Positions 5,488 through 29,267 of a stretch of 64,000 bases of DNA are shown piece by piece. Source of the DNA: a virus (lineage: Duplodnaviria; Heunggongvirae; Uroviricota; Caudoviricetes); the IMG/VR virus record IMGVR_UViG_3300029841_000009, positions 4,544 through 68,543 of that record, one strand, 5' to 3'. The first letter of the stretch is position 1, and each line of letters starts with the position of its first letter. A program made the translations under genes and the position numbers. Under the pieces are notes generated by a model that did not search any database, had not been told where the DNA came from, and saw only the letters and a list, made by a program, of their open reading frames with translations.

Positions 5488-5488
5488 C

Positions 5489-5926: not shown

Positions 5927-5977
5927 CTTCTTTCTCCATTAGTGGGTCTGTTACGACCCACAGGTTAATAACAGGCG

Positions 5978-6970: not shown

Positions 6971-6978
6971 TTCCTCTC

Positions 6979-7973: not shown

Positions 7974-9649
7974 TGTGATTGCCCACCCTGACCACTAACT
8001 GCATTCGCCATAGCTGACAAAACACTCGGATCCGAAGTTTTAGCTTCGCTTAGCGTCTTGGCACCCTGTGCCGCCGCCATCCCCATCGCCATCATTTGTT
8101 GCTGCTGTTGTTGCTGTGCCCGTTGCTGGCGAGCCTGCTCAACCTGTTCCTGCGGAACAATGACGGTTGGAGACACTCCGGACATATCAGCGAATGCATC
8201 GATCGCCTGATCAACGTTGAGTTTGTCGAGAGCTTCTGGTTTCGCTTGCGCAAGTTGACCAATGAAGTTAACCGTGGACGCCAGACTGGACAGGCCGATA
8301 GACTTCTGCGCCTGAGCCATGACGGAAATGTATTCGACCTTCAGGGGCATACCTTCCATCACGTCTGGCGGTGGCGGCAGCATGTTTTTACGCACCATCA
8401 TCGAGAAAGAGCGGTCAATGAGAGGATTAAGACATTCGTCGTTCAGACGCTCCAGAACCGGCCCCAACATCAGAAGTTTTTCTTCTTTCATTTCGATCAC
8501 CGCTTCAACAGGCATCGAGCGGGTATTGATGTTCTGCAACATCATGAACAGATCGACAAAGTAGGCGCTGTTAATGATTTGACGAGTGTCCTGAATGTCT
8601 GCCACCAAATCTGCTGTACTGGGGTTAACCAGATAAGCAGGCCTGAAACCATCCTGACCAGTAATCTGATCGATATACGTGATGTCGCCAGGAAGAAGGG
8701 AGGCACGCTGATTCTTGAGGGAAGTCGGAGCAACCATCGGCGGATTGGTGGCTTTATCAATCAACTGCGACTTGCGCTTCTGGAGAAGCTGCAATGCCTT
8801 AACAGGTCCAAGCGCCAGCATACCCGGGCATGATGATCCATAAACATCTTCGCCGTTAACTTCCCAGCGCGGGGCCATAATTGGAAACTCATCGAATCCG
8901 GACTCACGCAACAACTTGTCGTTATCGCCACCAACCTCGTAATAAACCGATTTGAATGGCTTGTTCTTGCTATCCAGCTTCGATGTATCGCGGTCAATGT
9001 TCGGGTAAACCGAATGCATCACTTCAATCCACTTCTCGTAGGTTCCGCTTTCCCACATGCTTTTTACGGATTCGCTGACGTTATTTAGCCCGAACTCCTG
9101 AACAAGCTGACGAACAGTCATAGAGAACTTGCGAAAACAGGTGTCCACACTGCCACGAGGTGAGTTAGCCAGGTAGTAACTGCCTATCGGGAATGGCATT
9201 GTGCGAATGATGTCCTCGTCATCCTCCAGCACTGCCATTGCACCAGTGCTGTATGTGCCGAGGCTTCCGTATAACTGCGGCAGCGACTGATAGAGATTCG
9301 ACTTATTGAACATATCGTTCATGCGGTTCTGCACCGCCTCAAGCCACAACTTAACAGGGCCATAATCCATCATTTCAGGATCTGGCGTAGCCAGGCGAAA
9401 CCACGGACGCGCGGGGCTTGTGATGCCTGACATCATGCCGCTGGCGAGAGTGCGCGCCGCCATAGTCCCGGTCGAATCAATAATGCGTGTATTGCGTCGA
9501 TCGTTACGGTTGACCTCAGAAGTCAGAAAGCGGGAACCACGCGGGTTGATGTAATCACTCAACTCGCGCCAGTGCGGCTCGAACGACTGACGCTCGCTTT
9601 CAAGTTGTGCGAACTGTTTGTTCAATCGCTCTTTAGTTGTTTCCGCCAT
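7970..9649 (-). CDS. Portal / head-to-tail connector (T7 gp8-like)
   Basis: 559 aa; C-terminus QQQQQQMMAMGMAAAQGAKTLSEAKTSDPSVLSAMANAV resembles the Gln/Ala/Met-rich C-terminus of T7-type connectors. Confidence 0.75.
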   Translation of the reverse strand: MAETTKERLNKQFAQLESERQSFEPHWRELSDYINPRGSRFLTSEVNRNDRRNTRIIDSTGTMAARTLASGMMSGITSPARPWFRLATPDPEMMDYGPVKLWLEAVQNRMNDMFNKSNLYQSLPQLYGSLGTYSTGAMAVLEDDEDIIRTMPFPIGSYYLANSPRGSVDTCFRKFSMTVRQLVQEFGLNNVSESVKSMWESGTYEKWIEVMHSVYPNIDRDTSKLDSKNKPFKSVYYEVGGDNDKLLRESGFDEFPIMAPRWEVNGEDVYGSSCPGMLALGPVKALQLLQKRKSQLIDKATNPPMVAPTSLKNQRASLLPGDITYIDQITGQDGFRPAYLVNPSTADLVADIQDTRQIINSAYFVDLFMMLQNINTRSMPVEAVIEMKEEKLLMLGPVLERLNDECLNPLIDRSFSMMVRKNMLPPPPDVMEGMPLKVEYISVMAQAQKSIGLSSLASTVNFIGQLAQAKPEALDKLNVDQAIDAFADMSGVSPTVIVPQEQVEQARQQRAQQQQQQQMMAMGMAAAQGAKTLSEAKTSDPSVLSAMANAVSGQGGQSQ

Positions 9650-9663
9650 TTCAATGACTCCGG

Positions 9664-9870
9664 TTACTGACCAAGCAGCGTTTTACCGCTGGTATTAGCG
9701 GTTGATGTGTCGCCCTGAGAACCGGTAAGCAGCGTAGAACTACGACCAGCAGCAGCGCGACGGCGACGAGTTTCTTCGTCGCGGGCATCAACAACGGCGG
9801 CATCCTGCTCCTGTGGTGCTGCCTGAACTTCTGGTGTTGCAGGCACTGATGGTGAGCTACCCATGCACAT
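9664..9870 (-). CDS. Hypothetical small low-complexity protein
   Basis: 68-aa ORF ending 15 nt before the portal start; Ala/Thr/Gln-rich; coding status uncertain. Confidence 0.25.
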   Translation of the reverse strand: MCMGSSPSVPATPEVQAAPQEQDAAVVDARDEETRRRRAAAGRSSTLLTGSQGDTSTANTSGKTLLGQ

Positions 9871-10297
9871 ATCAATGACTCCGTACGCAATTAAATTATT
9901 ACCAATTTAACCACATATGATTTATTTATCGTAGATAGTTGACATTTAACGCACAAATTATTACCTTTCAGGTAACCAAAGAATTCATTCCGGTTACTAA
10001 CCTGACTGGCTTGTCGTTAAATTGAACAGGTGGAGTGAGCTTTTATTTTGAGCAGTACGGCGTATGGCACATGCGCCGATAGCGGTCTGGATACGTTTAA
10101 GGGGCACCCTCCCTGGCTGTGGCAAACGAACCAGGTAGCCGGAATGTGCAAGTCGAGCGGTTTTATTCCGCGCACGGGGATTCACCATCCCGGCGATTCG
10201 GTGTGACGCCTCGGAAGAGACGAGGGTACAACGATGAGAGCATTTATGGAGCCGCGACAAAGTGTGGCGCCTTAACAGGCTAAGTGCTCTCAGCGTT

Positions 10298-10374
10298 GTG
10301 GCATTAGCTCAGTCGGACAGAGCAACCGCCTTCTAAGCGGTTGGTCGCAGGTTCGAATCCTGCATGCCACGCCA
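10298..10374 (+). tRNA. tRNA-Arg (anticodon UCU)
   Basis: Cloverleaf read by hand: acceptor GTGGCAT/ATGCCAC, D-arm GCTC..GAGC, anticodon stem ACCGC/GCGGT with loop CTTCTAA, T-arm GCAGG-TTCGAAT-CCTGC, discriminator G, CCA. Confidence 0.8.
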
Positions 10375-10537
10375 GAATCACGCCTAAGGACCGTGATGCC
10401 AGAAGTTCCAGGTGCTTGGCGGTGATGGTTTCCCTTGAAGGACTATCACCACCCTTTTTACAGCAGGACGCCATTGCGATGACTTCATGCTGTAAACCAG
10501 TACAGCCACGGAAGGCATAACTCATTGCTTCCAGTTC

Positions 10538-10561
10538 GCCCGATTCGCCGGGCATTTTTTT
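10538..10561 (+). terminator. Rho-independent terminator downstream of the tRNA
   Basis: GCCCG-attcgc-CGGGC hairpin followed by ATTTTTTT. Confidence 0.5.
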
Positions 10562-10572
10562 AAGGTGAGATT

Positions 10573-10944
10573 ATGAACGACCAGCAAATCGAAAAAGAAA
10601 TCGTTGAGAAAGGCAAAACGGCACCGCGCGTTACGCCAGACCATATCGAAGGCATTATTGCTCAGGAGGCATATTTCACAGCAGAAGATGGTGCCTTTGG
10701 CAAAGCCATAAAAGAGAAACATACTGGCGGAGAGGTAAACTACCAGCCGCACGAATCACTTTCTCTGCTGACGTTCTGCGTCCTGGTGCTGCGCAACGGC
10801 TTCACCGTCACCGGAGAGAGCGCCTGTGCAAGCCCGGAAAACTTTGATGCGGAAATTGGTCGGAAGATTGCCCGGCAGAATGCTGTAAACAAAATCTGGA
10901 TGCTCGAAGGTTACTTGCTGAAGCAGAAGCTAAGCGAGCAATAA
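10573..10944 (+). CDS. Hypothetical moron protein (opposite orientation to the structural operon)
   Basis: 123-aa ORF with strong SD (AAGGTGAG) 4 nt upstream of the ATG; sits with the tRNA between TerL and portal on the opposite strand. Confidence 0.5.
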   Translation: MNDQQIEKEIVEKGKTAPRVTPDHIEGIIAQEAYFTAEDGAFGKAIKEKHTGGEVNYQPHESLSLLTFCVLVLRNGFTVTGESACASPENFDAEIGRKIARQNAVNKIWMLEGYLLKQKLSEQ

Positions 10945-11034
10945 CGCCGTGACATGTCACAATCAGCCAGCCTATGAGCTGGCTTTGTTTTATCCTCACC
11001 AGAGGATATCAGCAGCATTATCCCATCCAGCGGA

Positions 11035-12510
11035 TTAAGCATAGGGATCGTAATCTGTGATGGCTTTGCCTTGCTGGTTCTGCTGCCCGGGAATTCGCAG
11101 ACGCTTCGACACAGGGAACGCAAACGTCAGCAGTAGCGCATCGCCTTTACCAGGAGAACGCCCAAGTCGCTCTTTGATATCTTCCTTCGGTTCGATAACG
11201 ATTTTACCGTCCACGCGAACTTTGTACTCTGCCGTCGACAGGTCGTCCGCTGTTTCCTGGTCATCCAGCATGCCGCCGAGCCTCAGCCATGTCTTGCATG
11301 AGTTGAACATCTCCCCACGCTTGTTGAGCATCTGCGGGTCAGTAGACGCGCCACCGAACGGAACAAGTTGCCATGTACGACCCCAGCCGTCACCGATTGA
11401 CTTCAAACCGGTTCCGTAACCGAAGTCGATGAACACCGCGTCAGCCTGATACTGGTCTTCAAAGTCAGCGATACGCTTCGCCATAATCAGATCGTCGGTA
11501 GTCTTGTTGCCAGTCCACAGCACCTTACTGTGTAGCCCCTGCCGCAGGTATATCACCGCGTCATCAACGCCTGAATATGCCGGGTCAACACCGATTATCA
11601 CCGGAGCATGTGCAACCTGCGCAGCGGTTACCACCCGTTTCATTGCCTCGTCAGTAAGACCGGTAGGGATAAACTGCAATTCAGATGCATCAGGGAATAT
11701 GCCACGCACACGGATTTTAACGAAGTCGCTATCTTCCCCGTAGTCATCAACCCATTTCTGCAACTGCTGTTTGTTGGTGCCTTCCACCGTCCTGCTGTCA
11801 ATCTGCGCAGTTTTCCAGCGGTGTTTGTATTTGCGGAAACATTCACGGAAACGCCCGGTGTTACGTGTAGGGTTTCCGAAAGCCACCCAGATAATCTCAG
11901 TGTCTTCGTCCGTTAGCGCACCCTCGGCAACTTCCCACACCAGATCCGCAATGTTCGACGCTTCATCAAATACCACAATGATGCGTTTACGCTCGTTGTG
12001 TAGTCCGGCGAATGCCTCAGTGTTGTGCTCAGACCAGGGGATTGCGTCAGCTCGCCACCGCTTGTCGTGCCCAGGGTCATTGCTGTACATCGCGGTAGCG
12101 GTACAGGTAAACCAGTCTTTCGTGATAGCAAGGTTTGACCACTTGATAATTTCCGGCCAGGTCTTCGTTCGTAGCTGGTTGTCGGTGTTGGCGGTCACCA
12201 CGACCTTACAATCCTCGCAAGTGGACATGCCCCAGTTGATCAGCATTGAGATGAATGCGGATTTACCAATACCGTGACCAGAAGCACGTGCCAGCATAAG
12301 CGGCTGATATCGCGTCTCTGGATTCTGCAGGTGATCACGTATCTCTCGGAACGCATCAGCCTGCCACTGACGTGGGCCGGTGGCATGTGCCAGTTCAGTC
12401 CCCTCTTCCCCCCATGGGAACGCATAGAGGGCATAGCCAAGCGGATCGTGAGTGAACCCTGCAATATCCTCGATTAACTGCTCTTCAGGAGATAACGCTG
12501 TATCTGTCAC
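11035..12510 (-). CDS. Terminase large subunit
   Basis: 491 aa; Walker-A-like GHGIGKS near the N-terminus; directly downstream of TerS. Confidence 0.8.
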   Translation of the reverse strand: MTDTALSPEEQLIEDIAGFTHDPLGYALYAFPWGEEGTELAHATGPRQWQADAFREIRDHLQNPETRYQPLMLARASGHGIGKSAFISMLINWGMSTCEDCKVVVTANTDNQLRTKTWPEIIKWSNLAITKDWFTCTATAMYSNDPGHDKRWRADAIPWSEHNTEAFAGLHNERKRIIVVFDEASNIADLVWEVAEGALTDEDTEIIWVAFGNPTRNTGRFRECFRKYKHRWKTAQIDSRTVEGTNKQQLQKWVDDYGEDSDFVKIRVRGIFPDASELQFIPTGLTDEAMKRVVTAAQVAHAPVIIGVDPAYSGVDDAVIYLRQGLHSKVLWTGNKTTDDLIMAKRIADFEDQYQADAVFIDFGYGTGLKSIGDGWGRTWQLVPFGGASTDPQMLNKRGEMFNSCKTWLRLGGMLDDQETADDLSTAEYKVRVDGKIVIEPKEDIKERLGRSPGKGDALLLTFAFPVSKRLRIPGQQNQQGKAITDYDPYA

Positions 12511-13184
12511 TGATTGCCATCCTGACGTTCTTTCAGTCTCTTCCTGGCTGCCGCTATGCGATCAGCAATTGTCACATTCACATTAACATCCAGGCGTTCT
12601 TTGAATGCGTTGACGTCGACGTGCTTACCAATCAGTTCGAGGTTCTTCACCTTGTCAGGCCATTTAATTTTTTTGAGGATGCCAACCAGCTCTTTCTCGT
12701 CTCCACGGCCTTCGAACATGTCGGCCAGTTCGAAACCTGTCAGGTACTGCCGCCAGACCTTAGGCCATTCCGAGACCGGCTTGATGCTCATATCGTCGTT
12801 GAGAATGTCAATCACGTCCATCTGGTCGATCTCCACCAGGCGCATGAGAACGTAATCAGCACTGACGCGCATTCGTTTGTTGCGCTCCTCCATCAACTCG
12901 GCAATCCGTTTCTGAATGCGTTCATCGCGCATCATGACACTGGCTTTAACTGCCGCTGTATTTGGGGAGAATCCTGCATTAATCGCAGCCTGAGTCTGGT
13001 TTTCAGGCGTTTTGATGTATGACTGGCAATAAGCCTCCTGCATTGCTGTTAGTGGCTTAAATTGCGTTGATTTGCGTTTATAGGTTTTAGGTTCAGCAGG
13101 CATCATAACCACCGTGGTAATAGTTACCGTTGTGGTAATAGTACCATGCAAAATAAAGCCGCCATAGTTGGCGGCAGTATTCAA
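12507..13184 (-). CDS. Terminase small subunit (true start probably near 13106)
   Basis: Helical DNA-binding N-domain pattern (QEAYCQSYIKTPENQTQAAINAGFSPNTAAVKAS) of small terminases; the poly-Thr N-terminal extension in the ORF is probably untranslated. Confidence 0.65.
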   Translation of the reverse strand: MNTAANYGGFILHGTITTTVTITTVVMMPAEPKTYKRKSTQFKPLTAMQEAYCQSYIKTPENQTQAAINAGFSPNTAAVKASVMMRDERIQKRIAELMEERNKRMRVSADYVLMRLVEIDQMDVIDILNDDMSIKPVSEWPKVWRQYLTGFELADMFEGRGDEKELVGILKKIKWPDKVKNLELIGKHVDVNAFKERLDVNVNVTIADRIAAARKRLKERQDGNQ

Positions 13185-13224
13185 AACCCATCAAATTCAT
13201 CATGCATAACCCACTCGTGACATG

Positions 13225-13578
13225 TCACAATATTAATTTCGTTTCATGCCAGCCTTTAGTCACCCAGCATTGCGAGTCACCATTACACGGGCATGAATTC
13301 ACAGGAACTCTCTCGCCGCACTTACCGCAACGTTTTCTGCTGATCGATTTTATACGCCCGTGCACGCGCGCATCATCCTGGCGGATCAGTAACGCTATAT
13401 ACTCACCAAATTCGTAAGGCGCACGCCCGGGGCGACGTGTGGCACAGTTACGCTCCAGCATTTCAATTTCCTGAGCATCAAGCACAATCTCCAGCTTACG
13501 CACACCAGATGCAGCTTGTCTGGCTCTCTGAGCGGCTTTGCGCTCTGCTGCTGCCTTAGCCATTACCATATCCACCAA
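13225..13578 (-). CDS. Hypothetical protein with Cys-rich C-terminus
   Basis: 117-aa ORF upstream of TerS; CGKCG...CPC motif suggests zinc binding. Confidence 0.35.
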   Translation of the reverse strand: MVDMVMAKAAAERKAAQRARQAASGVRKLEIVLDAQEIEMLERNCATRRPGRAPYEFGEYIALLIRQDDARVHGRIKSISRKRCGKCGERVPVNSCPCNGDSQCWVTKGWHETKLIL

Positions 13579-13648
13579 ACTTCACCAGACATGATTCTCG
13601 CAATCACTATCATCACCAAAGTGATAATCACAACTTTAACTGGCGGCA

Positions 13649-14026
13649 TCATTCACCATCCTGCTCCGGCGGTTCTGGCAGCGGCATCCAGTGGGTTACC
13701 TCCTTGAGATACAGGTCTTCGCCACCACCGTCATCCCAAGTGGGCTTGCCATCATTAAACCAGTCGCCATATACGCCGACCTGAGTGTTGGGGATGCTTG
13801 GTGGGTAGTTGTTTTTAAAGTCAGCAGCTAACACATAGCATTGTCGCTCTCCCATTTCTGGCATTCGTTCACTACAGCTTATCCAACTCTCCGGAGTTAC
13901 CGGAGAGTTGCCAGCCTCATACGCCACACGCATCCAGTGCATAAGCGTTTCAGTGCTCACACAGCCGCAATCAACATCAATTTTGCCGTGCTGCTGTTCC
14001 AGCCATTGCTCAAGCGTAGTGCTCAT
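13649..14026 (-). CDS. DUF551-like protein
   Basis: C-terminal THWMPLPEPPE motif typical of lambdoid DUF551 proteins. Confidence 0.55.
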   Translation of the reverse strand: MSTTLEQWLEQQHGKIDVDCGCVSTETLMHWMRVAYEAGNSPVTPESWISCSERMPEMGERQCYVLAADFKNNYPPSIPNTQVGVYGDWFNDGKPTWDDGGGEDLYLKEVTHWMPLPEPPEQDGE

Positions 14027-14256
14027 TTTTCATCCCCCCGATGATGCCATCTGCATCGCATCTCATAACACCCCCACTCAACACGAAAACCACATAGCCT
14101 GTGCAGATCCACCCACTTCTGCGCCATCGCTGGCGACGTGTAAATCACAGTGAATGCGTTATCTTCGTTGTCGATTTGCGTAAACGTCACTTTGTACAAC
14201 AACCCACCGTCGACACATGCTGTGTTCAACGATTTATTGCTAATACCCTCAATCAT
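14023..14256 (-). CDS. Hypothetical protein
   Basis: 77-aa ORF coupled to neighbours. Confidence 0.35.
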   Translation of the reverse strand: MIEGISNKSLNTACVDGGLLYKVTFTQIDNEDNAFTVIYTSPAMAQKWVDLHRLCGFRVEWGCYEMRCRWHHRGDEK

Positions 14257-14900
14257 TCGTACTCACCCCCCGCTGTTTTGAATTTGATCTCCGCTGCCTG
14301 CAATGCGTGTTCGACGTCGAAGCGGTCCAGCCATCCACCAAAGTGGTGCGGCATCATTACCACCCGCTCACCGCTATTTATTGGGTGGCCCATACGGGGT
14401 TCGTAGCCGTCCGGTAACTCGACTTCCCGCGCTTCCAGTTCTGCTATGCGCTTCTCTGATGCTTCAAGTAACGCCTGCTTATCGCGTAGCGCTTCTTCCA
14501 GTTCAGCAACATGGCACTCACTATCAATAAGGTTGTTCTCTGCGGCTTCCAGCTCAACACGCAGCTTCCCTACCGTTAGCGCAATATCCTCGTTCTCTTG
14601 GTCGCGGCGTTTGATGTATTGCTGGTTTCTTTCCCGTTCATCCAACAATGCCAGCACGGTAACTGGATTGGCTGCGGCGATGAATTCAGCATTGGCCTGC
14701 TGTTCCATTTGGAAATCTTCATCGAAACCGCTTTCAGGATGCGCTCCTTCAATTCTGCAAATGGGAAGATATCCAACAACTTCACGATGAATTAGCGCAT
14801 CACCAGCATCAAATCTCTCCTCTCCATATTCTAGCGACCACACACCACACGTTGCTTTTTCTGCCTTAGCACGCAGTGCCTGGTAATTAATTTCGCTCAC
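14253..14900 (-). CDS. Ead/Ea22-like protein
   Basis: N-terminus MSEINYQALRAKAEKA and coiled-coil core LLDERERNQQYIKRRDQENEDIALTVGKLRVELEAAE, as in lambdoid Ead/Ea22 proteins. Confidence 0.55.
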   Translation of the reverse strand: MSEINYQALRAKAEKATCGVWSLEYGEERFDAGDALIHREVVGYLPICRIEGAHPESGFDEDFQMEQQANAEFIAAANPVTVLALLDERERNQQYIKRRDQENEDIALTVGKLRVELEAAENNLIDSECHVAELEEALRDKQALLEASEKRIAELEAREVELPDGYEPRMGHPINSGERVVMMPHHFGGWLDRFDVEHALQAAEIKFKTAGGEYE

Positions 14901-15137
14901 TGGCTGCCTCCTGCTTTTCTGCCTTCAACACCATGCGAGAACCATCATCCAGCTCCCACACTATCTCACCACCTTCAGCCATGACCAGTTGCCACACCAA
15001 TTGAGCAGCCTCATTGGTAACATCACGACCTGGATCATTGCCAACGCGCATACGTCCACCTTCAACATCGCGCATTTTTGCCAGCATGATAGTTTTTGAT
15101 AGCGGTGAAAAACCAAGCTGTAGTCGTGCTGAATTAC

Positions 15138-15764
15138 TCACTGGTTGCCTCCTTTGCGAAGCTGTTCCGCCCATTCTTCAAGGGATTTCTCCGCATATTC
15201 ACCGGACAGGCCATCAATCGGATGCGCTTCATTAACCAACTCTTCTTTCGCTGACAAAATCATGCGTGTAACGTCGAAAACTTCACGCAAAGACTTATTG
15301 ATAAATCCGTGATTGAACGCAGCAGCAAGACGGCTGGCGGTATAGTTAATCCCCTCGTTGCGTGCTTCCGCACGAATTTCAGCCAGAAAAGCATCGGTAG
15401 CTGGAGTTTCGCTGTGGTGTAGGGCATCATTGATAATCATTGCAGCAACACCAGCCTGCCCTGCATCCGTGACCGACACATGCTCAAGAGTTACGGCCAT
15501 TGCGTGTTTCAGTCCGTCGTTCTCCACCACCAGCGCAGCGAGATTAGTCTCATACTCCGCAATTCGGCACATAGCATCGATATTTGTGTCCTCCAGCCGC
15601 TTAATTTCATCCAGTAGCGCCAGCACAACCTGCGGTGTGACCTTCATACGAAACGCGAGCAATTTTTGCGGCGTTGCCACGACTTTTATTGCTTCTGCTG
15701 CCTCACGCAGTGCCTGGTAATTAATTTCGCTCACTGGTTGCCTCCTGAATACGCTTAAACTCAA
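15138..15764 (-). CDS. Ead/Ea22-like protein (paralog)
   Basis: Contains SEINYQALREAAEA; its 3' ~250 bp is near-identical to 63750-64000. Confidence 0.5.
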   Translation of the reverse strand: MSLSVFRRQPVSEINYQALREAAEAIKVVATPQKLLAFRMKVTPQVVLALLDEIKRLEDTNIDAMCRIAEYETNLAALVVENDGLKHAMAVTLEHVSVTDAGQAGVAAMIINDALHHSETPATDAFLAEIRAEARNEGINYTASRLAAAFNHGFINKSLREVFDVTRMILSAKEELVNEAHPIDGLSGEYAEKSLEEWAEQLRKGGNQ

Positions 15765-16491
15765 TTACCCATACCCACGGGTTAGATAGCCAGTTCTCTT
15801 GCCCGTAAATACCGCGCCAGATATCACCAAAGCCAACGCGATAAACAGCTTCCGGCGGTGTAATCTTGTACGTCGCCGGAGATGCGCCTTCCGCTTTAGC
15901 ATCTGCCTCGCTCATGTCATGCAGCCGTTCCACACGCACGTCGGTAATTTCCAGCAAAATACGCGAAGCCCAGCGCGGCATGTGAATTGATGGACACCAC
16001 CCGCCATCAAACTTTTCATTCACAGTGTGAGGTTTCCAGTCGGCATCATCGGGTATCGACCACAGGCCGTAATCACCAGGCTTTTGCTCGCAACTGGCCC
16101 GATAAATCCTTGCTGCGTTCTTCTCATCGCCACGACAAAGGTTGTCGTTCCAGTCCACACTGCAACCATCCTCATTGCCTAATATCGCCCACGCTTCACG
16201 GACCCATATGCGATCACCAACGTTACCGAACGGACATAAACCATGTTCAGGTGCATCCATAACGTGGGTATAGACACCATTGCGTTTCTTTGTCGGTTTA
16301 CGGATAACCAGGCAGTTATCGGCCCTGACATTTTTTACAGGTCGGCGAGTCTGCGTCTTCCTGCCTTCGAGGATGGCCCTGACCATCGCATCATTAAAAA
16401 TCATGCCGCGCTCTTTCATCTTGCTCACTTCAACTCCTCCCGACGACGTTCCTGAAGCTCTAGCATTGCTGCTCGGAAATCCTGCCACCAT
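15721..16491 (-). CDS. Hypothetical phage protein (probable start at internal MKERGMIFNDAMVRAILEGRKTQTRR)
   Basis: 256-aa ORF; the conserved-looking segment starts about 24 codons in. Confidence 0.4.
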   Translation of the reverse strand: MVAGFPSSNARASGTSSGGVEVSKMKERGMIFNDAMVRAILEGRKTQTRRPVKNVRADNCLVIRKPTKKRNGVYTHVMDAPEHGLCPFGNVGDRIWVREAWAILGNEDGCSVDWNDNLCRGDEKNAARIYRASCEQKPGDYGLWSIPDDADWKPHTVNEKFDGGWCPSIHMPRWASRILLEITDVRVERLHDMSEADAKAEGASPATYKITPPEAVYRVGFGDIWRGIYGQENWLSNPWVWVIEFKRIQEATSERN

Positions 16492-23349: not shown

Positions 23350-23371
23350 AAAAAAGGCCCCCGAAGGGGCC
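23350..23371 (-). terminator. Rho-independent terminator (minus-strand orientation)
   Basis: GGCCCC-cgaa-GGGGCC hairpin with T5 on the minus strand. Confidence 0.5.
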
Positions 23372-23377
23372 TAATCG

Positions 23378-23500
23378 CTACTTGCTGCTAATGTTTATCG
23401 TCACATTCAGAGCGTTATCAGTAATCTTCCAACCCTCCCCATGTGGCGTAAACAAAGCTCCAGTAACAACGATAAAAATACACATACAGTATTTTTTCAT
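23378..23500 (-). CDS. Small hydrophobic protein (40 aa, MKKYCMCIFIVVTGALFTPHGEGW...)
   Basis: Internal start of the 23378-23560 ORF with AAGGG SD 7 nt upstream; hydrophobic N-terminus; terminator downstream. Confidence 0.3.
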   Translation of the reverse strand: MKKYCMCIFIVVTGALFTPHGEGWKITDNALNVTINISSK

Positions 23501-23731
23501 TGTATGGCCCTTACAGGCCGTTTCACGGCATCCCCACCGACGAAAACAACGCGAGAGCAAGCACGGCTGCTTGTGCTTGCATGTACGGCAACGGAGAATC
23601 CTCCCCTAAAGTCGGTGCCCGGGTGCGAATCGGCGGGAAGGTCCACAGGTATTTTACGATTATTTTAAGATTAGTTATAGGAAAGAAATTAAACGAAAAA
23701 ACTCGTTTATTTTCACAAAATCAGTAACCTA

Positions 23732-24014: not shown

Positions 24015-24095
24015 CGAGCCGTAGCAAAATCTACGGTCGGGATTGGAACCCCGATAATCATCATGGCGCATACCGCGTTAGCGGTTTTTTTATGC
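24015..24095 (+). ncRNA. Candidate c4-like antisense/regulatory RNA in the antirepressor leader
   Basis: Hairpins CCGTAG-caaaat-CTACGG and TCGGG-AUUGGAA-CCCGA, then terminator ACCGC-gtta-GCGGT plus T7; loop UUGGAAC is complementary to GUUCCAA at 24175-24181. Confidence 0.3.
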
Positions 24096-24256
24096 GTAAA
24101 GCACTGCTACACCCAAATTATGGTGGGGCGTGCGGGGGAGTCGTAAGACTCGCCGGATTCCATGGTGACCGGTAGTTCCAACCCTGTACGTCTCACCACC
24201 CAATGATTGGAACCAGACGGTGGTGAGTATCCTTAACCTTTAAGGGAACTATCACC

Positions 24257-24448
24257 ATGACAAACCTACCCCATGACTATTACGTCAACCTCGTAAAGAT
24301 CCTTCTCAAGAAAGCCTCATACGCCGATAAATTCCGCCTGGCTGAAATCATCGAGCGCGAAGCTATGCGCATCGCCAGCAACGATAACGCTGTTTCTGTC
24401 GCAAAAATCTCCCTCGTAACCAAAGTAGTTATGGGAGGTGCAAAATGA
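24257..24448 (+). CDS. Small protein translationally coupled to the antirepressor (Icd-like position)
   Basis: 63-aa ORF; its stop overlaps the ant ATG (ATGA). Confidence 0.4.
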   Translation: MTNLPHDYYVNLVKILLKKASYADKFRLAEIIEREAMRIASNDNAVSVAKISLVTKVVMGGAK

Positions 24449-25626
24449 AAACGCTTCCGACCGTTAACACCCTACAGCCTATCCTGCATAACCAGCTCCC
24501 CGTTATCACTACTGAACTACTGGCGCAATTGTATGGAACCGAGCGCCAACGTCTGACAAACAATTTCAATAGAAACAAGGAACGTTTTATAGAAGGTAAA
24601 CACTTTTTTAGGATAGAAGGTAAAGAGTTACGAGAGTTGAAGAACAAAAACTCTTTAAGAGTTCCTGTGAGAGTAGTTAACGAACCATCTTTAAGAGGGT
24701 TACAAATTCCCCCGAAAGTTCGCTCCCTCATCCTCTGGACAGAACGCGGGGCTGCACGTCACGCCAAAATGCTTGAAACTAACCAAGCGTGGGATGTGTT
24801 CGAACGGCTGGAAGACAGCTACTTCAACCAGAACGCACAAACGGCCGCGACCGTAACCGTCTCACCAAACAATGCTCGTGAGGTTGTCGATACGCTCAAC
24901 GCCAAACCAATGTATTACGTTAAGGTGTGCAACAACGAGCCACTCACAACCTCAGCCGATGTTGCCCAAGCATTCAGCACCACAAACAATTCCATCGTTA
25001 TGGCCATCGATGCGTTACGCATTCCTCGCACGGCTGCGGCGCGTCACTTCTTTAAAGAACAACGACCGCTGGAAGGAAGCGACCGCGAAATAACAATCTA
25101 TCGCATGACAAAAGACGGATTTACCTTGCTCATGGAAAGTATCGACGGTCCAGGCGTGAAGGATATCAAGCTGGCCTACATTGAAGCCTTTAACGCTATC
25201 AGCAGCGTGTTAAAGGCAGAATACGAGCGAATGCTATACAACCGACTGTATCAGGAAACAAAGATTATCCGAACGGCAACAGAACATCATCGGCTATTAA
25301 CGGAACCAAACTACCGCAAGACACTAATCAAAGAGTTTGACAAGGCGACGGAGAAAACTAAAGCGGCACTAAATCTACCAACAATGACTAAAGATGATGT
25401 GATATCAGCCTTACTTCTTGATCTGCTCAGAAACGCCAGAGCACTTATCAGTTTTGACGAAAACCTGAATCCTCAGCTCAAGCTACTACCACCGACAGGC
25501 AAAGTAGTCGACCAAGCAGATCACAACAGCATACTCAGCGTACTGGATGCAAACCTGCCAGCCAGGACACTACAGGAGCTGATAAAAATATCTGCGGATA
25601 AACTGGCCGCAGGTGCAAAACCATAA
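24445..25626 (+). CDS. Antirepressor (ORF6N-like N-domain + Rha-like domain)
   Basis: N-terminal LYGTERQRLTNNFNRNKERFIEGKHFFRIEGKELRELKN; central ITIYRMTKDGFTLLMESIDGPGVKDIKLAYIEAFN (Rha-type). Confidence 0.75.
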   Translation: MKTLPTVNTLQPILHNQLPVITTELLAQLYGTERQRLTNNFNRNKERFIEGKHFFRIEGKELRELKNKNSLRVPVRVVNEPSLRGLQIPPKVRSLILWTERGAARHAKMLETNQAWDVFERLEDSYFNQNAQTAATVTVSPNNAREVVDTLNAKPMYYVKVCNNEPLTTSADVAQAFSTTNNSIVMAIDALRIPRTAAARHFFKEQRPLEGSDREITIYRMTKDGFTLLMESIDGPGVKDIKLAYIEAFNAISSVLKAEYERMLYNRLYQETKIIRTATEHHRLLTEPNYRKTLIKEFDKATEKTKAALNLPTMTKDDVISALLLDLLRNARALISFDENLNPQLKLLPPTGKVVDQADHNSILSVLDANLPARTLQELIKISADKLAAGAKP

Positions 25627-25630
25627 AACA

Positions 25631-25650
25631 AAGCGCCCGATTTGGGCGCT
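25631..25650. terminator. Bidirectional terminator hairpin between convergent genes
   Basis: AGCGCCC-gatt-GGGCGCT with A/T runs on both sides. Confidence 0.5.
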
Positions 25651-25660
25651 TCTTCAATTC

Positions 25661-26296
25661 TTAATATTTCGGTGTAATCAGTAGCGATACATGCCCTGAT
25701 TTGTCACGAGAAACGTAATACTCGCCTCTCTTAGTCTTGAACTCAGCTTTCTGCATATCTGATTTAACAATCTGCTCTAACTGCGCAATCACGGTGTCTC
25801 TTTCACTTGACGCATCCAAGACTTCAACTGCTACGGCCATAGAAAGCAAGGAATCAGAGTTAGGCTTGGATACTCGCCATAATAACTCAGAAATCTTCCC
25901 ATCCTTATCAACTCTAGCCCGACCGTTAACAGATGAGTTGATGGCAAATTCAACGGTGTTATTACCTTGTTTAACAGACTTAATTCTTATAGTGGAGGTG
26001 GCTTTTCCTGATGTAACGATGCCTTCAAGGTCATCATTATATAACTGCTTAAACTTATCTACGGTCACACCATCAAAAGCAGCTCCGGTAGTAGCCGCAG
26101 TGTTGGAGTCTTCTGGGATCAAGGTCACAGCCGCAAGAGTATTAACAACTACAAAAGTAGCAATCCCGAGAAAGCCACTCACTAAAACAGCTTTGAACTT
26201 ACCACCAGAAGACGAGGCACATTGTTTCCGATATGCGCCACGAACTACGAAGAAACACAAAATCAGGCTAATAATAAACGCCACCAGCATCCCCAT
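25661..26296 (-). CDS. Membrane-anchored hypothetical protein
   Basis: 211 aa with two predicted N-terminal TM helices and a Ser/Thr/Asn-rich soluble domain. Confidence 0.45.
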   Translation of the reverse strand: MGMLVAFIISLILCFFVVRGAYRKQCASSSGGKFKAVLVSGFLGIATFVVVNTLAAVTLIPEDSNTAATTGAAFDGVTVDKFKQLYNDDLEGIVTSGKATSTIRIKSVKQGNNTVEFAINSSVNGRARVDKDGKISELLWRVSKPNSDSLLSMAVAVEVLDASSERDTVIAQLEQIVKSDMQKAEFKTKRGEYYVSRDKSGHVSLLITPKY

Positions 26297-26862
26297 AGAA
26301 ATCTCCTTTTAGATATAAGGGTAAAGCAATATCGTATTAGATCTTCCTTAAGACACAACCCCCCCTCCCCCCATACAGGGTGCCCTTTACCGGAGTTCCG
26401 GCCCCTTCTCAAAAGCATCAAAAAAAGCTCGAGATCGAGTACCGGAACTCATGCCACCAGATAGCTCCACATCGTTTCCAATGCTTCGCCGCCGTGTGCG
26501 CCCTGTGGCCCACAATCATGCCATTGGTCGTCTGATATACCTTCTTCTGCTCATTGAGCACAGGCGAGTTGTCGCACTCCTGCCTTTCTCAGACTCGACT
26601 TAGTTTAGATCGCTGTTCCTGGCTTGCGTCAGCACACTTTCCCCTTGTACGCATACCCGCGCGCCACTTCGCCCAAAAACACCGAACCCAACGAAGTAGC
26701 AAAGACAACGACGCGAGCGTGAGTCTGAAACGTGCACCAGTAAAAAAGGGGTTGCAGGCGCAAAAAGATTTGATTATCTTTAGACGCAAGAAAGCCGCCC
26801 CAATCAAGAGGTGTCTTTTTAAATCCAGCCTACCAAGCAAGATTTAAATTTCAGACTGAAAA

Positions 26863-26890
26863 CCGCCCGGCAAGGCGGTTTTTGTCTTTC
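26863..26890 (+). terminator. Rho-independent terminator closing a 600-bp noncoding island
   Basis: AACCGCC-cggcaa-GGCGGTT followed by TTTTTGTCTTT. Confidence 0.5.
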
Positions 26891-26931
26891 TGGCGCTTAC
26901 ATTACACCACCAGAAAACGATCCGTAAAGGA

Positions 26932-27204
26932 TCATTTGATCCCTTGTTCCAATTCTGCCGACACTTTAACCTTTTCCCATACAAGGGTTTGCAGCCTTAA
27001 CAGAATCGCATCTTTATCAAGGTGTGAAAGATCCTTAACCATATCGTCAAACGACAGAACGCGAATGGCCATCTCAATGACCCTCGGCGGCTCCCCCTTC
27101 TCATATCGCTTATATGTAGCCAACGATATCCCAAACTCTTCGGCTGCTCGCTCCTGCGTCCAGTTCATCCCACGACGCCATAATTTCAATTCGTAACCCG
27201 TCAT
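26932..27204 (-). CDS. HTH-XRE family transcriptional regulator
   Basis: ELKLWRRGMNWTQERAAEEFGISLATYKRYEKGE: Cro/C1-type HTH. Confidence 0.6.
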   Translation of the reverse strand: MTGYELKLWRRGMNWTQERAAEEFGISLATYKRYEKGEPPRVIEMAIRVLSFDDMVKDLSHLDKDAILLRLQTLVWEKVKVSAELEQGIK

Positions 27205-27305
27205 TACATCCTCTACCTTTCCCTAGATATTCAATAAATTAGACATAGCCACTCACGACAAAATAAGATGTATTAACAATCCAATCTTTAGGCTTTAGGT
27301 AAAAA

Positions 27306-27731
27306 ATGAGTTCATCTGCTTTTGTCACCGTGGTCACTGGTGTAAGTGTTTTTGTTCTAGGCCAACTCATCGTCAAAGGAGCTATTGAGCCTTACATTTC
27401 ATTCAGGGAACAACTAGGGAAAATATCCAATCTGTTATTATGTAACCAAGCAAAAATAGTGAATCCTAGCTCGAACTTAAAGCCAGAAATCATTCATGAT
27501 CTAAAAGATTCCGCAGCACAGTTAATGGCAAAATATTCCACTTTACCTTTCTATATCAAAAAGTTACATATCGGCTTTCGTCTTGTTCCATCAGCCACCG
27601 AGATTCTTGGGGCAGCTCGAAATTTGAACTATATAGCGTCAATACATGAAGGTAAGACTGGGGAGAATCCATCTAAGCATCTCGAAGAGATTGGCCATAT
27701 GCTCAAAATACCAACTACCTATTCAAGCTAA
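27306..27731 (+). CDS. Hypothetical protein with N-terminal TM helix (AT-rich gene)
   Basis: 141 aa; AFVTVVTGVSVFVLGQLIV TM segment; divergent from the HTH gene; visibly lower GC than its neighbours. Confidence 0.45.
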   Translation: MSSSAFVTVVTGVSVFVLGQLIVKGAIEPYISFREQLGKISNLLLCNQAKIVNPSSNLKPEIIHDLKDSAAQLMAKYSTLPFYIKKLHIGFRLVPSATEILGAARNLNYIASIHEGKTGENPSKHLEEIGHMLKIPTTYSS

Positions 27732-27833
27732 CCCAATGTAAGTTATCGGCTTGCCCCACAATAAGTTATCTATCTTCAAACGCCCCTATATTAACACTCG
27801 CAAAGTGTCAAAATGACACTTTGCGCATTGTGT

Positions 27834-28214
27834 TTACTTAACGAGGAATAAAAATGGTTTATCGTTCGGCGGTGTACTCGGGGCTGGCTCGCTTTTGCTC
27901 ATACGATCAGTGTACCAGGCCAGCTCCTTGTCAAAGTAAGCCTGATTAAAATAGGCCATGAATGTGGTTTCAAATCCATAACGACCGCTAATACGCAGCA
28001 TCTGATTGCCGTTCTCTGTTTCCAGATATACCTGGGCACGTTCCTGATTCTCCTTCAGCCAAGTTAAAGCCTCGTCGCACGAGGACACACGATACTCATC
28101 ATCGTAGCCGTCATCGATGCGGCTTGAAGAAGAACGGCAAATCACGCCAACAGAACCAGCCAGGATAGTTTGAATTTTAAGGAAAGCGTTTTTGCGGATT
28201 TTAATCATGCTCAT
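27834..28214 (-). CDS. Hypothetical protein driven by cassette copy 2
   Basis: 126-aa ORF directly downstream of the conserved promoter-leader cassette. Confidence 0.45.
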   Translation of the reverse strand: MSMIKIRKNAFLKIQTILAGSVGVICRSSSSRIDDGYDDEYRVSSCDEALTWLKENQERAQVYLETENGNQMLRISGRYGFETTFMAYFNQAYFDKELAWYTDRMSKSEPAPSTPPNDKPFLFLVK

Positions 28215-28333
28215 CGGGTTATCTCCGGTTTAACCAGGGCGGGTATCGCTCGGTTTCGGGTATAACCATAGGAAATTTTTTCCCACCTGTAAAGCACTTT
28301 TATATAAATCTATAATTATATAATTCTATGAGC
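28215..28333 (-). promoter_or_regulatory. Conserved promoter-leader cassette, copy 2
   Basis: Near-identical to 58794-58911; -35 TTTACA, 17 bp, -10 TATGGT, leader, GGAG SD, ATG. Confidence 0.5.
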
Positions 28334-28334
28334 A

Positions 28335-28361
28335 CAAAAAAGCCCCTTTGCAACAGGGGCT
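28335..28361 (-). terminator. Rho-independent terminator after the higBA operon
   Basis: AGCCCCT-ttgcaac-AGGGGCT with T6 on the minus strand. Confidence 0.55.
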
Positions 28362-28376
28362 TATCATTCGTTCTGA

Positions 28377-28676
28377 TCAGATGTTAAACGCTATTCGTTT
28401 TCCTGTGGGAAGCTCAACATCCAGGCTTAATTTGCCTCCCATAGCTTCAACGTAACGCTTTAATGTCGCCAGCTTTAAATCATTTCCGCGCTGCTCCAGC
28501 TTTGTTACTGCTGGCTGGCTTATACCCATCGCCTCAGCAACCTGCTTTTGTGATAACTGGAGTTCTTCACGCATCATCTGCAAGCCGACCTCAAGAATCA
28601 TCTCATCTGCCATTTCTTTAATTCGCGCCTGGCTTTCCGGTAAACGGCTGGCAATCACCTCATCTAATGTTCTCAT
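28377..28676 (-). CDS. higA: HigA-like antitoxin (HTH-XRE)
   Basis: 99 aa with HTH (LSQKQVAEAMGISQPAVTKLEQ); immediately downstream of and overlapping the toxin gene. Confidence 0.65.
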   Translation of the reverse strand: MRTLDEVIASRLPESQARIKEMADEMILEVGLQMMREELQLSQKQVAEAMGISQPAVTKLEQRGNDLKLATLKRYVEAMGGKLSLDVELPTGKRIAFNI

Positions 28677-29029
28677 TACTTGCTCTCCAGTGTGTTCAGA
28701 TGTGCTGCAAACTCATCCTCAGCTATACGCACCAGTTTTTTATAAAACCGCTTATCGTTACTTTTGTCTCCTGCACAAAGAACGATAGCCCGGCGAATCG
28801 GATCGAACGCATAAAAGGCTCTTATCGGACGGCCAGAAAACTGAACGCGAAGCTCTTTCATATTTTTGTACCGAGAACCTTTTACGGTATCGGCATATGG
28901 CCTGGGTAACTCAGGTCCGTAAACCTGTAGCTTTTTCAAATCAGCCAAAACCTTTTCCTGAAGAGCGTCTTCTTGCTCATTTAGCCAGCCGTCAAATCGC
29001 TGGCTAAAAAGTACCGTCCACATGCTCAA
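28676..29029 (-). CDS. higB: HigB-like toxin (RelE/ParE superfamily)
   Basis: 117 aa; toxin-first order; resembles the HigB / Gp49-like killer family. Confidence 0.65.
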   Translation of the reverse strand: MSMWTVLFSQRFDGWLNEQEDALQEKVLADLKKLQVYGPELPRPYADTVKGSRYKNMKELRVQFSGRPIRAFYAFDPIRRAIVLCAGDKSNDKRFYKKLVRIAEDEFAAHLNTLESK

Positions 29030-29267
29030 TCCTATAACCTGTAGTTTATATCACTAACTATATAACCTGTGAGTTATAATTTCAAGAAAAACGGGGCCAT
29101 TTAACATAATGGACGTTATCGGCACCACCGGATCACCGTTCATTGTCGGATCTAAAAAATCCGCTCAAAAGATCATGTTTTCCTGGGCGTTTTCCACCGT
29201 TTTTTATGTTGCTTATTTGTTAATGAAATCTCGTTTTCAGTTTCGCCTCATTTTCGACGCGAAAGCC

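Follow-up and report, generated by a model that had tools for sequence, protein, structure and literature searches.

Our analysis suggests that positions 26351 to 26937 of the analysed window (a stretch of 64 kb, counted from its first letter) probably constitute, at a chance of about two in three, a divergent ColE1 (ColRNAI)-type RNA-primed origin, i.e., a second replicon beside an IncFII-type RepA. The host replicon is a 48-kb temperate myovirus living as a plasmid, and RepA is the only recognisable replication module of this phage. Judged from its sequence, the conserved module (~587 nt, minus strand), delimited by conservation and ColE1 homology, is homologous to ColE1-type origins, with the same part order, strand and spacing. 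This homology to the RNAII/RNAI region appears to be the unifying explanation that the initial annotation of the island had missed.

The module contains no ORF under selection, and the poly-C tract, inverted repeat and terminator described initially are all present. The tract reads CCCCCCCTCCCCCC (26359 to 26372), the repeat arms GAGTTCCGG and CCGGAACTC lie at 26393 to 26401 and 26442 to 26450 with 40 nt between them, and a hairpin with a T-run was found at ~26788 to 26821, also as annotated. The strong plus-strand terminator was recovered by a terminator scan as a G+C-rich hairpin with a T-run at 26857 to 26884, the only strong plus-strand terminator-like site in the island. The flanks are those reported, namely an HTH gene (26932 to 27204, minus strand) and a hydrophobic 211-aa ORF (25661 to 26296, minus strand) that has no match in Pfam. 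Furthermore, the Rfam scan proposed with the initial annotation returned nothing at the gathering score, and at E<=10 only terminator-driven RNAI and Phe_leader matches on the element; the weak RNAI matches proved to be a true lead.

The statement that the island holds no credible ORF is borne out by its relatives, where indels or stops disrupt the minus-strand ORFs, and by six-frame fragments without relatives in Pfam, tblastn (outside the family) or PHROG. A decayed pseudogene, the outcome against which the initial annotation had set its proposal, was rejected because these fragments match nothing in Pfam and, outside the family, nothing in tblastn. It is scarcely credible that the island is such a pseudogene, or a gene for a small protein or type I toxin with an antisense RNA, even though one plus-strand ORF (26451 to 26603, 50 codons) is intact in 16 of 16 variants and the geometry of a long structured RNA with a short antisense RNA resembles hok/sok. 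This ORF has a dN/dS of 0.5 to 0.76, its variable sites are spread evenly over the three codon positions (10, 7 and 11, respectively), and its 'synonymous' divergence is 7 to 10 times below that of the neighbouring gene. A type I toxin-antitoxin system or small ORF was therefore rejected on ORF disruption and dN/dS; no conserved toxin ORF of the kind that hok/sok-like systems carry within their long RNA was found under purifying selection.

All members of a ~48-kb phage-plasmid family from E. coli, Salmonella, Klebsiella, Citrobacter and Yokenella carry the block, at 88 to 100% identity across 16 distinct copies in these five genera, and no other part of the maintenance region examined (25600 to 29100) is as conserved. 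Comparison of relatives, proposed initially as a way to define insertion boundaries, gave sharp edges at the HTH stop codon on one side and 8 to 13 nt past the G-run on the other. Where the block is 84 to 95% identical, the adjacent HTH gene is 54 to 79% identical (HTH dS 1.1 to 1.4) and the flanks are 54 to 83% identical or unalignable. Purifying selection on the block is strong; one of its two most variable segments is the apical part of stem-loop 2 of the predicted antisense RNA described below. The XRE-type HTH gene is a constant companion of the module, and the two remain together even where all else around them differs (L053), a co-occurrence that suggests a functional link. Beside HTH homologues of <=57% identity, the element was not found. 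Among viral contigs, pattern scans recovered nothing outside the 88 to 100% family, and a scan of GTDB representative genomes gave one chance match and no true distant copy.

Beyond a sharp mosaic boundary at 26346, the cargo genes differ among relatives. This boundary, the inverted repeats and a 9-nt match, TGCGTACAA (26647 to 26655), to the XerC arm of cer would fit a site that acts in cis at the DNA level in recombination or attachment, dimer resolution, centromere function or packaging, through hairpins formed in DNA or protein-binding repeats. We regard this as very improbable. Against what we take to be the cer consensus, with an XerD arm of TTATGnTAAA and a spacer of 6 to 8 bp, the XerC-like arm alone matches; reading of the sequence disclosed no XerD-type arm, nor were there iterons or direct repeats beyond chance, and a Xer/cer dimer-resolution site was rejected on this basis. 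ColE1 homology, besides, would account for the parts. The attachment or recombination site suggested initially is likewise disfavoured: reading of the sequence revealed no Xer-type core, and RNA is indicated by the compensatory changes described below. The gene downstream of the element varies among relatives, and there is none in L053 to L055, where the element adjoins the end of the convergent ant gene. A cis-regulatory leader or riboswitch of a downstream gene was rejected, since that gene is variable or absent and Rfam gave no match. Of the long structured leader proposed initially, the long structured RNA stands, with covariation in its favour, but on the minus strand; the role as a leader does not, as some relatives have no gene 3′ of the element (L053 to L055).

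The features of the island go beyond what chance would give: the minus strand has a folding z of -4.1, the alignment fold one of -5.5, and the block is strongly constrained. The predicted RNAII-like preprimer transcript is structured and would span ~505 to 540 nt of the minus strand (26351 to 26891), as suggested by local pairs and the ColE1 alignment; its putative start at ~26891 was placed by alignment to the ColE1 region upstream of RNAI, and its 3′ ends would be expected at 26351 to 26390. Among 127 local pairs, 99.5% are canonical and 6 carry compensatory double changes, at a divergence of only 10 to 12% and with the fold taken from the same alignment. Variable pairs stay canonical in 21 of 28 cases as minus-strand RNA versus 4 as plus-strand RNA. 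The G-U intermediates that keep them canonical are specific to the minus strand, which points to a minus-strand RNA rather than a DNA site. Only local hairpins are claimed here, because long-range helices differ between two alifold runs.

Four such hairpins lie on the minus strand; columns are those of alignment A3. In the hairpin at 26663 to 26700 (columns 243 to 280), three pairs change on both sides (AU/UG/GU, UA/CG and UA/CG/UG) and three on one side. The hairpin at 26621 to 26657 (columns 286 to 322), with the G-rich loop GGGGAAAG, is invariant in 12 of 12 pairs and sits centrally in a 50-nt substitution-free stretch (26613 to 26662), a core that lacks a ColE1 counterpart. A GAAA-tetraloop hairpin (26469 to 26484, columns 459 to 474) occurs in five sequence variants, four of them fully paired, with three pairs changing on both sides, and it aligns with the ColE1 segment CCAGGGGGAAACGCCTGG. 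The inverted repeat of the initial annotation (I5) forms a long terminal hairpin of 20 pairs (26393 to 26450), of which five vary, each on a single side and by way of G-U intermediates, and all remain paired; its loop TTTTTTTGATGCT aligns with TTTTTGTGATGCT of ColE1.

An HMM profile of six genuine ColE1-type origins, searched over both strands of the whole window, gave a single match, at 26945 to 26859 on the minus strand (E=3.5e-7), and in 537 kb of other loci it recognised each copy of the element, always at this position. Reciprocally, the HMM of the element matched ColE1-type plasmids at E=1.4e-8, with collinear weak matches in the 3′ domain; against ColE1 alone, the element profile found nothing with nhmmer --max, and the default pipeline later gave clear matches. 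In a database search, 445 small ColE1-like plasmids matched nt 5 to 87 of the element at E<=1, ColRNAI-typed, rop-carrying replicons among them. Overall similarity to ColE1 is too low for detection by blastn at E<=1e-5. Semi-global collinear alignment reached z=5.9 with ColE1 and z=8.8 with a Klebsiella ColRNAI plasmid, versus z<=2 for reverse-complement controls. Without the first 100 nt, z was 3.0 to 4.3, and 0 to 2 of 300 shuffles reached the observed score; the last 200 nt alone gave z=1.9 to 3.6, and the middle 300 nt are not significantly similar to ColE1-type origins (z=1.3 to 1.9). Similarity is significant only over ~90 nt at the 5′ end and, less strongly, over ~200 nt at the 3′ end.

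This distribution might also be expected of an unrelated large structured non-coding RNA with its own cis-antisense sRNA, e.g., for anti-defence or host manipulation, whose ColE1 likeness would be convergent or confined to a promoter/terminator cassette. The strong similarity in the 5′ 90 nt only, the dissimilar middle 300 nt and the invariant core at 26613 to 26662 speak for it, and RNA-based origins have reportedly arisen more than once, e.g., in MRB plasmids (PMC3035462). The MRB origins of Vibrionaceae (Le Roux et al., PMC3035462) resemble the element in being ORF-less and iteron-less over ~500 bp and in having an inverted repeat between A- and T-runs; as in the RNA pair predicted here, a small RNA I, abundant in MRB plasmids, is transcribed opposite to a longer RNA II. 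Their RNA I, however, measures ~68 nt and forms two stem-loops, and the family is reported to have no relationship with ColE1. Small sequence differences permit compatibility among MRB origins (PMC3035462). Yet the 3′ tail of the element is collinear with, in the right orientation to, and significantly similar to five different ColE1-type origins, and length, part order and position of the G-rich end match ColE1, so that we consider an unrelated RNA quite improbable. As a separate observation, the profile of the 5′ hairpin of the element also matches a V. cholerae plasmid beside a PAGEV RNA.

The RNAI of ColE1-type origins is ~108 nt long, forms three stem-loops, is complementary to the 5′ end of RNAII and has its terminator beside the RNAII start. 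Each of these parts has a candidate here. The RNAII-like promoter (26899 to 26933, minus strand) would consist of a -35 element TTTACG (26928 to 26923) and a -10 element TAATGT (26904 to 26899) with an 18-nt spacer. In the profile of six ColE1-type origins, their RNAII promoter falls on this site (consensus cttgagatc...gcgtaatct, nhmmer E=3.5e-7); the aligned ColE1 stretch is TTGAGA ... TAATCT, which we take to be the hexamers of the ColE1 RNAII promoter. Two GATC sites (26930 to 26933 and 26919 to 26922) flank the -35, as they do in the homologous ColE1-type region, and the only positions that vary within the family (columns 28 to 31) fall in the spacer. A GATCC-N5-GGATC palindrome occurs once in the window; since a comparable GGATC...GATCC repeat sits at the corresponding place of the ColE1 promoter region, the palindrome is ancestral and not specific to the HTH protein, and an HTH operator was rejected.

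On the plus strand, a candidate RNAI-like promoter (TTGCAG - 17 nt - TATCTT, 26752 to 26780) was read directly from the sequence; its hexamers are invariant in 16 copies, and its two variable sites (columns 174 and 181) lie in the spacer. Both candidate promoters are weak by consensus, and a simple sigma-70 scanner called neither. The predicted RNAI-like antisense RNA of ~100 nt (26787 to 26888, plus strand) would fold into stem-loops at 26788 to 26821, 26821 to 26845 and 26859 to 26882 followed by a U-run. In six genuine ColE1-type loci, the homologous promoter is immediately followed by Rfam RNAI on the other strand, which is also the predicted placement here. The sRNA envisaged initially would hence correspond to this RNA, at least insofar as the prediction ends at the terminator noted then. 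The hairpin at 26857 to 26884 is bidirectional, because an A-run lies on its other side, and may serve both as terminator of the antisense RNA and as 5′ hairpin of the long RNA, as in ColE1-type origins. It is invariant in the family and is the best-aligned part of the ColE1 profile (aaaaaccgcc...ggcggtttt).

The remaining likeness to ColE1-type origins lies in an ORF-less extent of ~0.6 kb and a collinear 3′ domain, in which a G[GAAA]C hairpin and a hairpin with a TTTTT(G/T)TGATGCT loop precede a G-rich stretch. The element differs in an RNAI-like RNA that falls under the Rfam threshold (18.1 bits on the plus and 20.3 bits on the minus strand, versus a gathering score of 47), in an unrelated middle third, in an extra invariant G6AG7, in the lack of a rop gene, and in its location in a 48-kb temperate myovirus beside IncFII RepA, coupled to the upstream HTH gene. 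Rop/Rom is an accessory factor in the ColE1-type family and is absent from some members. The annotation of the complete 48.5-kb relative lists no Rop-family gene; one is present in the Klebsiella ColRNAI comparison plasmids. No conserved primosome-assembly site is present downstream of the element, because the sequence beyond 26346 is mosaic. In ColE1, the RNAI/RNAII overlap is 110 and the RNAII length 555 (PMC11012335); the predicted values for the element are ~105 nt and ~505 to 540 nt, respectively.

The G-rich stretch of the element sits just before the end of conservation, and the ColE1 origin is located downstream of an essential G-rich stretch (PMC6317783). In pairwise alignments of low confidence over this part, AAGGGGCCGGAACUCCGGUAAAGG (26384 to 26407, minus strand) aligns to the ColE1 G-run and the RNA-to-DNA switch. 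Within this low-confidence stretch, AAGGGGCCGGAAC is matched with the ColE1 G-run GGGGGGCGGAGCC, after which the invariant G6AG7 follows. ColE1 has its G-run at 1175 to 1187 and the RNAI end at 645, and the published 555-bp distance (PMC11012335) puts the origin near 1198. The G6AG7 (C7TC6 on the plus strand; 26359 to 26372, minus strand) is identical in 16 of 16 copies, has no counterpart in the ColE1 alignment and lies ~12 nt beyond the aligned origin.

G6AG7 is also the commonest allele of human mitochondrial CSB II and forms RNA, DNA and hybrid G-quadruplexes (PMC8780183). There, the G-run stops transcription and anchors an R-loop (PMC8780183; PMC6317783), and the priming R-loop is processed by RNase H1 into the primer (PMC6317783). 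The element and the mitochondrial LSP-CSB II-OriH region have the identical 14-mer in common, located on the RNA-like strand where a non-coding transcript ends (a predicted one in the present case); they differ in polymerase, organism and the remaining sequence. The 14-mer is of low complexity, and its identity with CSB II may be a coincidence.

In the proposed mechanism, a promoter just past the HTH stop codon (TTTACG-18-TAATGT) would drive a structured RNAII-like RNA of ~540 nt from the minus strand. Its G-rich 3′ end (AAGGGGCCGGAAC ... G6AG7) would remain hybridised to the C-rich template, RNase H would trim the hybrid, and DNA polymerase I would then extend leftwards. The plus-strand RNAI-like RNA of ~100 nt (from the TTGCAG-17-TATCTT promoter to the terminator at 26857 to 26884), to which the initial ~105 nt of the long RNA are fully complementary, would pair with the latter and block primer formation, thereby setting copy number and incompatibility. 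Both transcripts and their ends, R-loop priming, and a role in lysogenic maintenance or lytic amplification are in this sense predictions.

As IncFII RepA is already present, a second and typically multicopy origin needs explanation. The captured origin may have been retooled, so that a ColE1-derived RNA pair no longer primes and acts instead, e.g., as a regulatory or decoy RNA under antisense control, as a means of exclusion of or incompatibility with ColE1-type plasmids, or as a transcription buffer between the convergent repA-HTH and ant operons. We consider this unlikely, although the resident RepA, the constant tie to an HTH gene that is absent at this position in true ColE1 plasmids, the extra G6AG7 missing from the ColE1 alignment, and the divergence of the RNAI-like part past the Rfam threshold would all agree with it. 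Constraint is strong over all ~590 nt, even in the 3′ domain, whose sole role in ColE1 is in primer formation and which would not be conserved for an sRNA-only function. Moreover, no complementary target for a trans-acting antisense RNA was found elsewhere in the window (best E=0.12).

As a tentative extension of the main reading, which we hold to be possible at best, the element would be the lytic-cycle origin of the phage. IncFII RepA would maintain lysogeny at low copy, while the RNAI-like RNA, perhaps together with the linked HTH protein, would restrain the RNAII-like primer. On induction, primer formation would be released and replication primed from an R-loop held at G6AG7 through an RNA:DNA hybrid or G-quadruplex, with the 14-mer and the principle of mitochondrial CSB II. 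Phage P1 has dual replicons, with oriR/RepA for plasmid maintenance and oriL/RepL for lytic growth. Like P1, the present phage-plasmid would have two separate replication systems, the second one being predicted here; in P1 that second system depends on RepL, whereas here it would be RNA-based and Rep-free. A P1-like immI module (isrK/C4 RNA, icd-like gene and ant) lies in the same window. The GC skew of the complete plasmid gave a monotonic, uninformative profile.

We found no paper on this phage-plasmid family or on a ColE1-type origin in phage-plasmids. If the lytic role is true, this would be the first natural temperate phage with a ColE1-type, Rep-free origin and a bacterial parallel to G-quadruplex priming in mitochondria. 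Typing and tracking of phage-plasmids rely on Rep and Par genes, and a protein-free second replicon would escape annotation by MOB-suite and Rfam; MOB-suite assigned no replicon type to these phage-plasmids. If the origin fires, copy number and the dosage of cargo genes, e.g., those for resistance, would be affected, as would incompatibility towards ColE1-type plasmids and vectors and the switch from maintenance as a plasmid to amplification in the lytic cycle or back. The element would also widen the known sequence space of ColE1-type origins well past RNAI-based typing and may offer a tractable bacterial system for the action of G6AG7 in R-loop priming. One family member is the 48-kb plasmid of E. 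coli ATCC 25922 (corresponding region NZ_CP009073, 17025 to 17650). As this quality-control strain is used worldwide, the predictions are easy to test.

The noncoding island at 26351-26937, read on the minus strand, is on sequence grounds best described as a divergent ColE1-type RNAII/RNAI origin inside a phage-plasmid. ColE1 was considered because of the architecture: a long noncoding RNA, a convergent antisense RNA of ~100 nt, and a G-rich 3′ end. The predicted antisense RNA (~100 nt) ends at a terminator beside the start of the long RNA. We put the probability of homology to ColE1-type origins at about 0.9. ColE1 (NC_001371), from RNAII promoter to origin, is collinear with the minus strand (z = 5.7-5.9 versus dinucleotide shuffles), and the plus-strand control alignment scored like random sequence. 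A Klebsiella ColRNAI plasmid aligned to the element at z = 8.8. In relaxed blastn (E ≤ 1), element nt 5-87 were matched by 445 small plasmids, including ColRNAI-typed replicons with rop. Furthermore, when both strands of the whole 64-kb window were searched with a profile of six genuine ColE1-type origins, none from this phage-plasmid family, exactly one match emerged (26945-26859, minus strand; E = 3.5e-7); it spans the RNAII promoter and 5′ hairpin. The same profile found all element copies, at the same place, in 537 kb of other loci. The reciprocal (element) profile matched ColE1-type plasmids at E = 1.4e-8, and its 3′ domain gave collinear same-strand matches, each individually weak, in five of them.

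The similarity was still significant with the first 100 nt removed (z = 3.0-4.3; 0-2 of 300 shuffles reached the score), the reverse-complement controls giving z = -0.8 to 1.4. Over the last 200 nt z was 1.9-3.6, and the middle 300 nt were not significantly similar to ColE1-type origins (z = 1.3-1.9). At blastn sensitivity, the phage collection held no other natural phage with a ColE1-type origin; the matches were cloning-vector sequences. In V. cholerae pVC1699 (891-957 and 1012-1229), the element's 5′-hairpin profile also gave a match (E = 1.2e-7), with a PAGEV RNA (Rfam RF03037, 124 bits) immediately downstream. Vibrio RNA-based origins might share a promoter/terminator cassette with ColE1-type origins.

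In the alignment to ColE1, the predicted RNAII-like promoter on the minus strand (-35 TTTACG, 26928-26923; -10 TAATGT, 26904-26899) falls on TTGAGA and TAATCT, which we take to be the ColE1 promoter hexamers. ColE1, like the element, has a GATC site on either side of the -35. Within the family, variable bases in this stretch are confined to the spacer. The long RNA is predicted to start near 26891. On the plus strand, the putative RNAI-like RNA (~26787 to ~26888) is predicted to fold into three stem-loops and follows a candidate promoter (TTGCAG-17-TATCTT) varying in its spacer only. At the six genuine ColE1-type loci, taken in the minus-strand-like orientation, Rfam places RNAI on the opposite strand, right after the matched promoter. 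The apex of stem-loop 2 is among the block's two most variable segments, as expected if it belongs to the loops that set specificity. RNAII of ColE1 starts at -555 and RNAI at -445 (PMC11012335); the two RNAs overlap by 110 nt there and by a predicted ~105 nt in the element.

The features listed in the initial annotation are all in the sequence, including the hairpin at 26788-26821, the terminator at 26857-26884, which is bidirectional, and C7TC6 on the plus strand (26359-26372). The loop TTTTTTTGATGCT of its inverted repeat (arms 26393-26401 and 26442-26450) aligns to ColE1 TTTTTGTGATGCT, a GAAA-tetraloop hairpin (26469-26484, minus strand) to CCAGGGGGAAACGCCTGG, and the element's AAGGGGCCGGAAC to the ColE1 G-run. 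In ColE1, an essential G-rich stretch immediately precedes the origin (PMC6317783). The 555-nt rule places that origin near 1198 of NC_001371, which corresponds to ~26386-26388, where the alignment is weak.

The block evolves as a minus-strand RNA. Folding against shuffled sequences gave z = -4.1 for the minus strand versus -2.0 for the plus strand, and the alignment fold gave -5.5 and -4.5, respectively. Only local hairpins (127 pairs) were retained because long-range helices disagree between two predictions. Across these pairs, 99.5% of cells are canonical, and six pairs carry changes on both sides. The covariation score was 0.101 versus 0.012-0.030 with partners slid, at only 10-12% divergence and with a structure derived from the same alignment. 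Since many changes pass through G-U, 21 of the 28 variable pairs are canonical in every sequence as minus-strand RNA, versus 4 of 28 as plus-strand RNA. Two hairpins stand out most clearly: the one at 26663-26700 (minus strand) and the GAAA-tetraloop hairpin, of whose five variants four pair completely.

The alignment comprised 16 different copies, found in elements of E. coli, Salmonella, Klebsiella aerogenes, Yokenella, and Citrobacter. High conservation runs from the stop codon of the HTH gene (26937) to 26351, 8-13 nt past the G-run. Compared over 3.5 kb, the block has 84-95% identity versus 54-79% for the HTH gene; the remaining flanks have 57-88% or cannot be aligned. The HTH gene has a dS of 1.1-1.4, whereas the block differs by only ~0.1 per site; therefore, nearly all block positions are constrained. 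The initial annotation saw no credible ORF, and none accounts for this conservation, judging by six-frame searches, ORF disruption, and dN/dS. Six-frame fragments of the block found no relatives, its minus-strand ORFs are disrupted elsewhere in the family, in other clades, and the sole ORF intact everywhere (26451-26603, plus strand) has a dN/dS of 0.5-0.76 with no codon-position bias. The suggestion of a long structured leader fails, because in three Salmonella relatives (L053-L055) only the end of the convergent ant gene follows the block.

The suggested comparison with related replicons located the island's boundary. The block is in all family members (62 records with the block, 60 with the terminase gene), and the common sequence starts at 26346, extending rightwards through the HTH gene, with differing genes to the left. 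The upstream HTH gene always accompanies the block, even where every other neighbour differs; the block is absent where the HTH homologue is more distant. The 90-aa HTH protein has homologues (35-55% identity) in ~3700 plasmids, most of them conjugative (IncI, IncF, IncL). None of three such loci inspected from the plasmid collection has the RNA element, and the one looked at closely lies among mobilization genes, ardA, and hok.

The analysis shows sequence homology, matching geometry, purifying selection, and strand-specific conservation of structure; transcription, priming, and role are inferred from these. By analogy with ColE1, the island probably remains a working RNA-primed origin. The leading alternative is that a ColE1-derived RNA pair was retooled and has lost replication priming. 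The element departs from the ColE1 family in having no rop gene, a constant upstream HTH gene, and a host replicon with an IncFII-type RepA; its RNAI-like RNA scores 18 bits versus the Rfam threshold of 47. Searched against PHROG and Pfam, the early operon showed no replication module besides RepA, except for a DUF3560 protein with a weak primase-like match. Unlike ColE1, the element carries an invariant G6AG7 (26359-26372, minus strand) ~12 nt beyond the aligned origin. This is identical to the 14-mer of the commonest human CSB II allele, which forms RNA, DNA, and hybrid G-quadruplexes (PMC8780183); CSB II anchors the mitochondrial priming R-loop (PMC6317783). For R-loop formation at the element, this identity is support by analogy only.

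Window 25600-27300 matched 62 plasmids of 46-52 kb (97-99% identical; Escherichia, Salmonella, Klebsiella), predicted to be non-mobilizable, and three Yersinia myoviruses. The complete relative in E. coli ATCC 25922 combines a contractile-tail phage with RepA, ParA, a HigBA-type toxin-antitoxin pair, and an antirepressor operon, and is therefore a phage-plasmid; the corresponding part of the window is 16424-61841. A ColE1-type origin would be a second replicon, without annotation, in a common phage-plasmid family that includes this reference strain's plasmid.

Directly after the putative origin, from 26346 leftwards (25661-26296), lies a variable cargo slot with the same boundary nucleotide in all relatives. 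It holds a 211-aa hydrophobic protein in the window, a 62-aa ORF in ATCC 25922, a 218-aa protein in K. aerogenes, and 214-264-aa proteins in Salmonella, and is empty in L053-L055. On the other side, between the HTH gene and a 126-aa gene, a ~590-bp insertion (27213-27800) occurs in the window, in p853EC2, and in a few further relatives, but most lack it; it carries an oppositely oriented 141-aa ORF (27306-27731, plus strand).

A P1 immI-type immunity module lies nearby: isrK (24018-24091, plus strand, 70 bits) and C4 antisense RNA (24116-24203, plus strand, 84 bits) immediately precede a stretch (24257-25626, plus strand) with a 63-aa ORF and a 393-aa antirepressor, the latter annotated ORF6N/Rha in relatives. 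A ryfA-family RNA maps to 23350-23646 (minus strand, 142 bits), and the trio recurs in L053 and L054. Between isrK and ryfA in the Salmonella relatives, outside the element, is a second origin-profile match (positions 61-187, RNAI region; E ~1e-5), at 4646-4751 in L053 and L055 and 5031-5096 in L054 (plus strand). The window has no equivalent, and Rfam calls no RNAI at this L053-L055 site.

The remaining ~18 kb of the window (1-16424 and 61841-64000) carries genes for structural proteins of podovirus type (T7 gp14-like internal virion protein, GP7 major capsid, head-tail connector, small terminase) and for tRNA-Arg(tct) at 10298-10374; therefore, the source replicon seems to be either a two-phage hybrid or cointegrate or the product of an assembly join. 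The two parts meet at an Ead/Ea22-like gene (14253-14900). Inside the phage-plasmid part, tRNA-Met(cat) at 59801-59876 (minus strand) maps to where the ATCC 25922 plasmid has no annotation, between its lysis genes and an MT-A70 methyltransferase gene.
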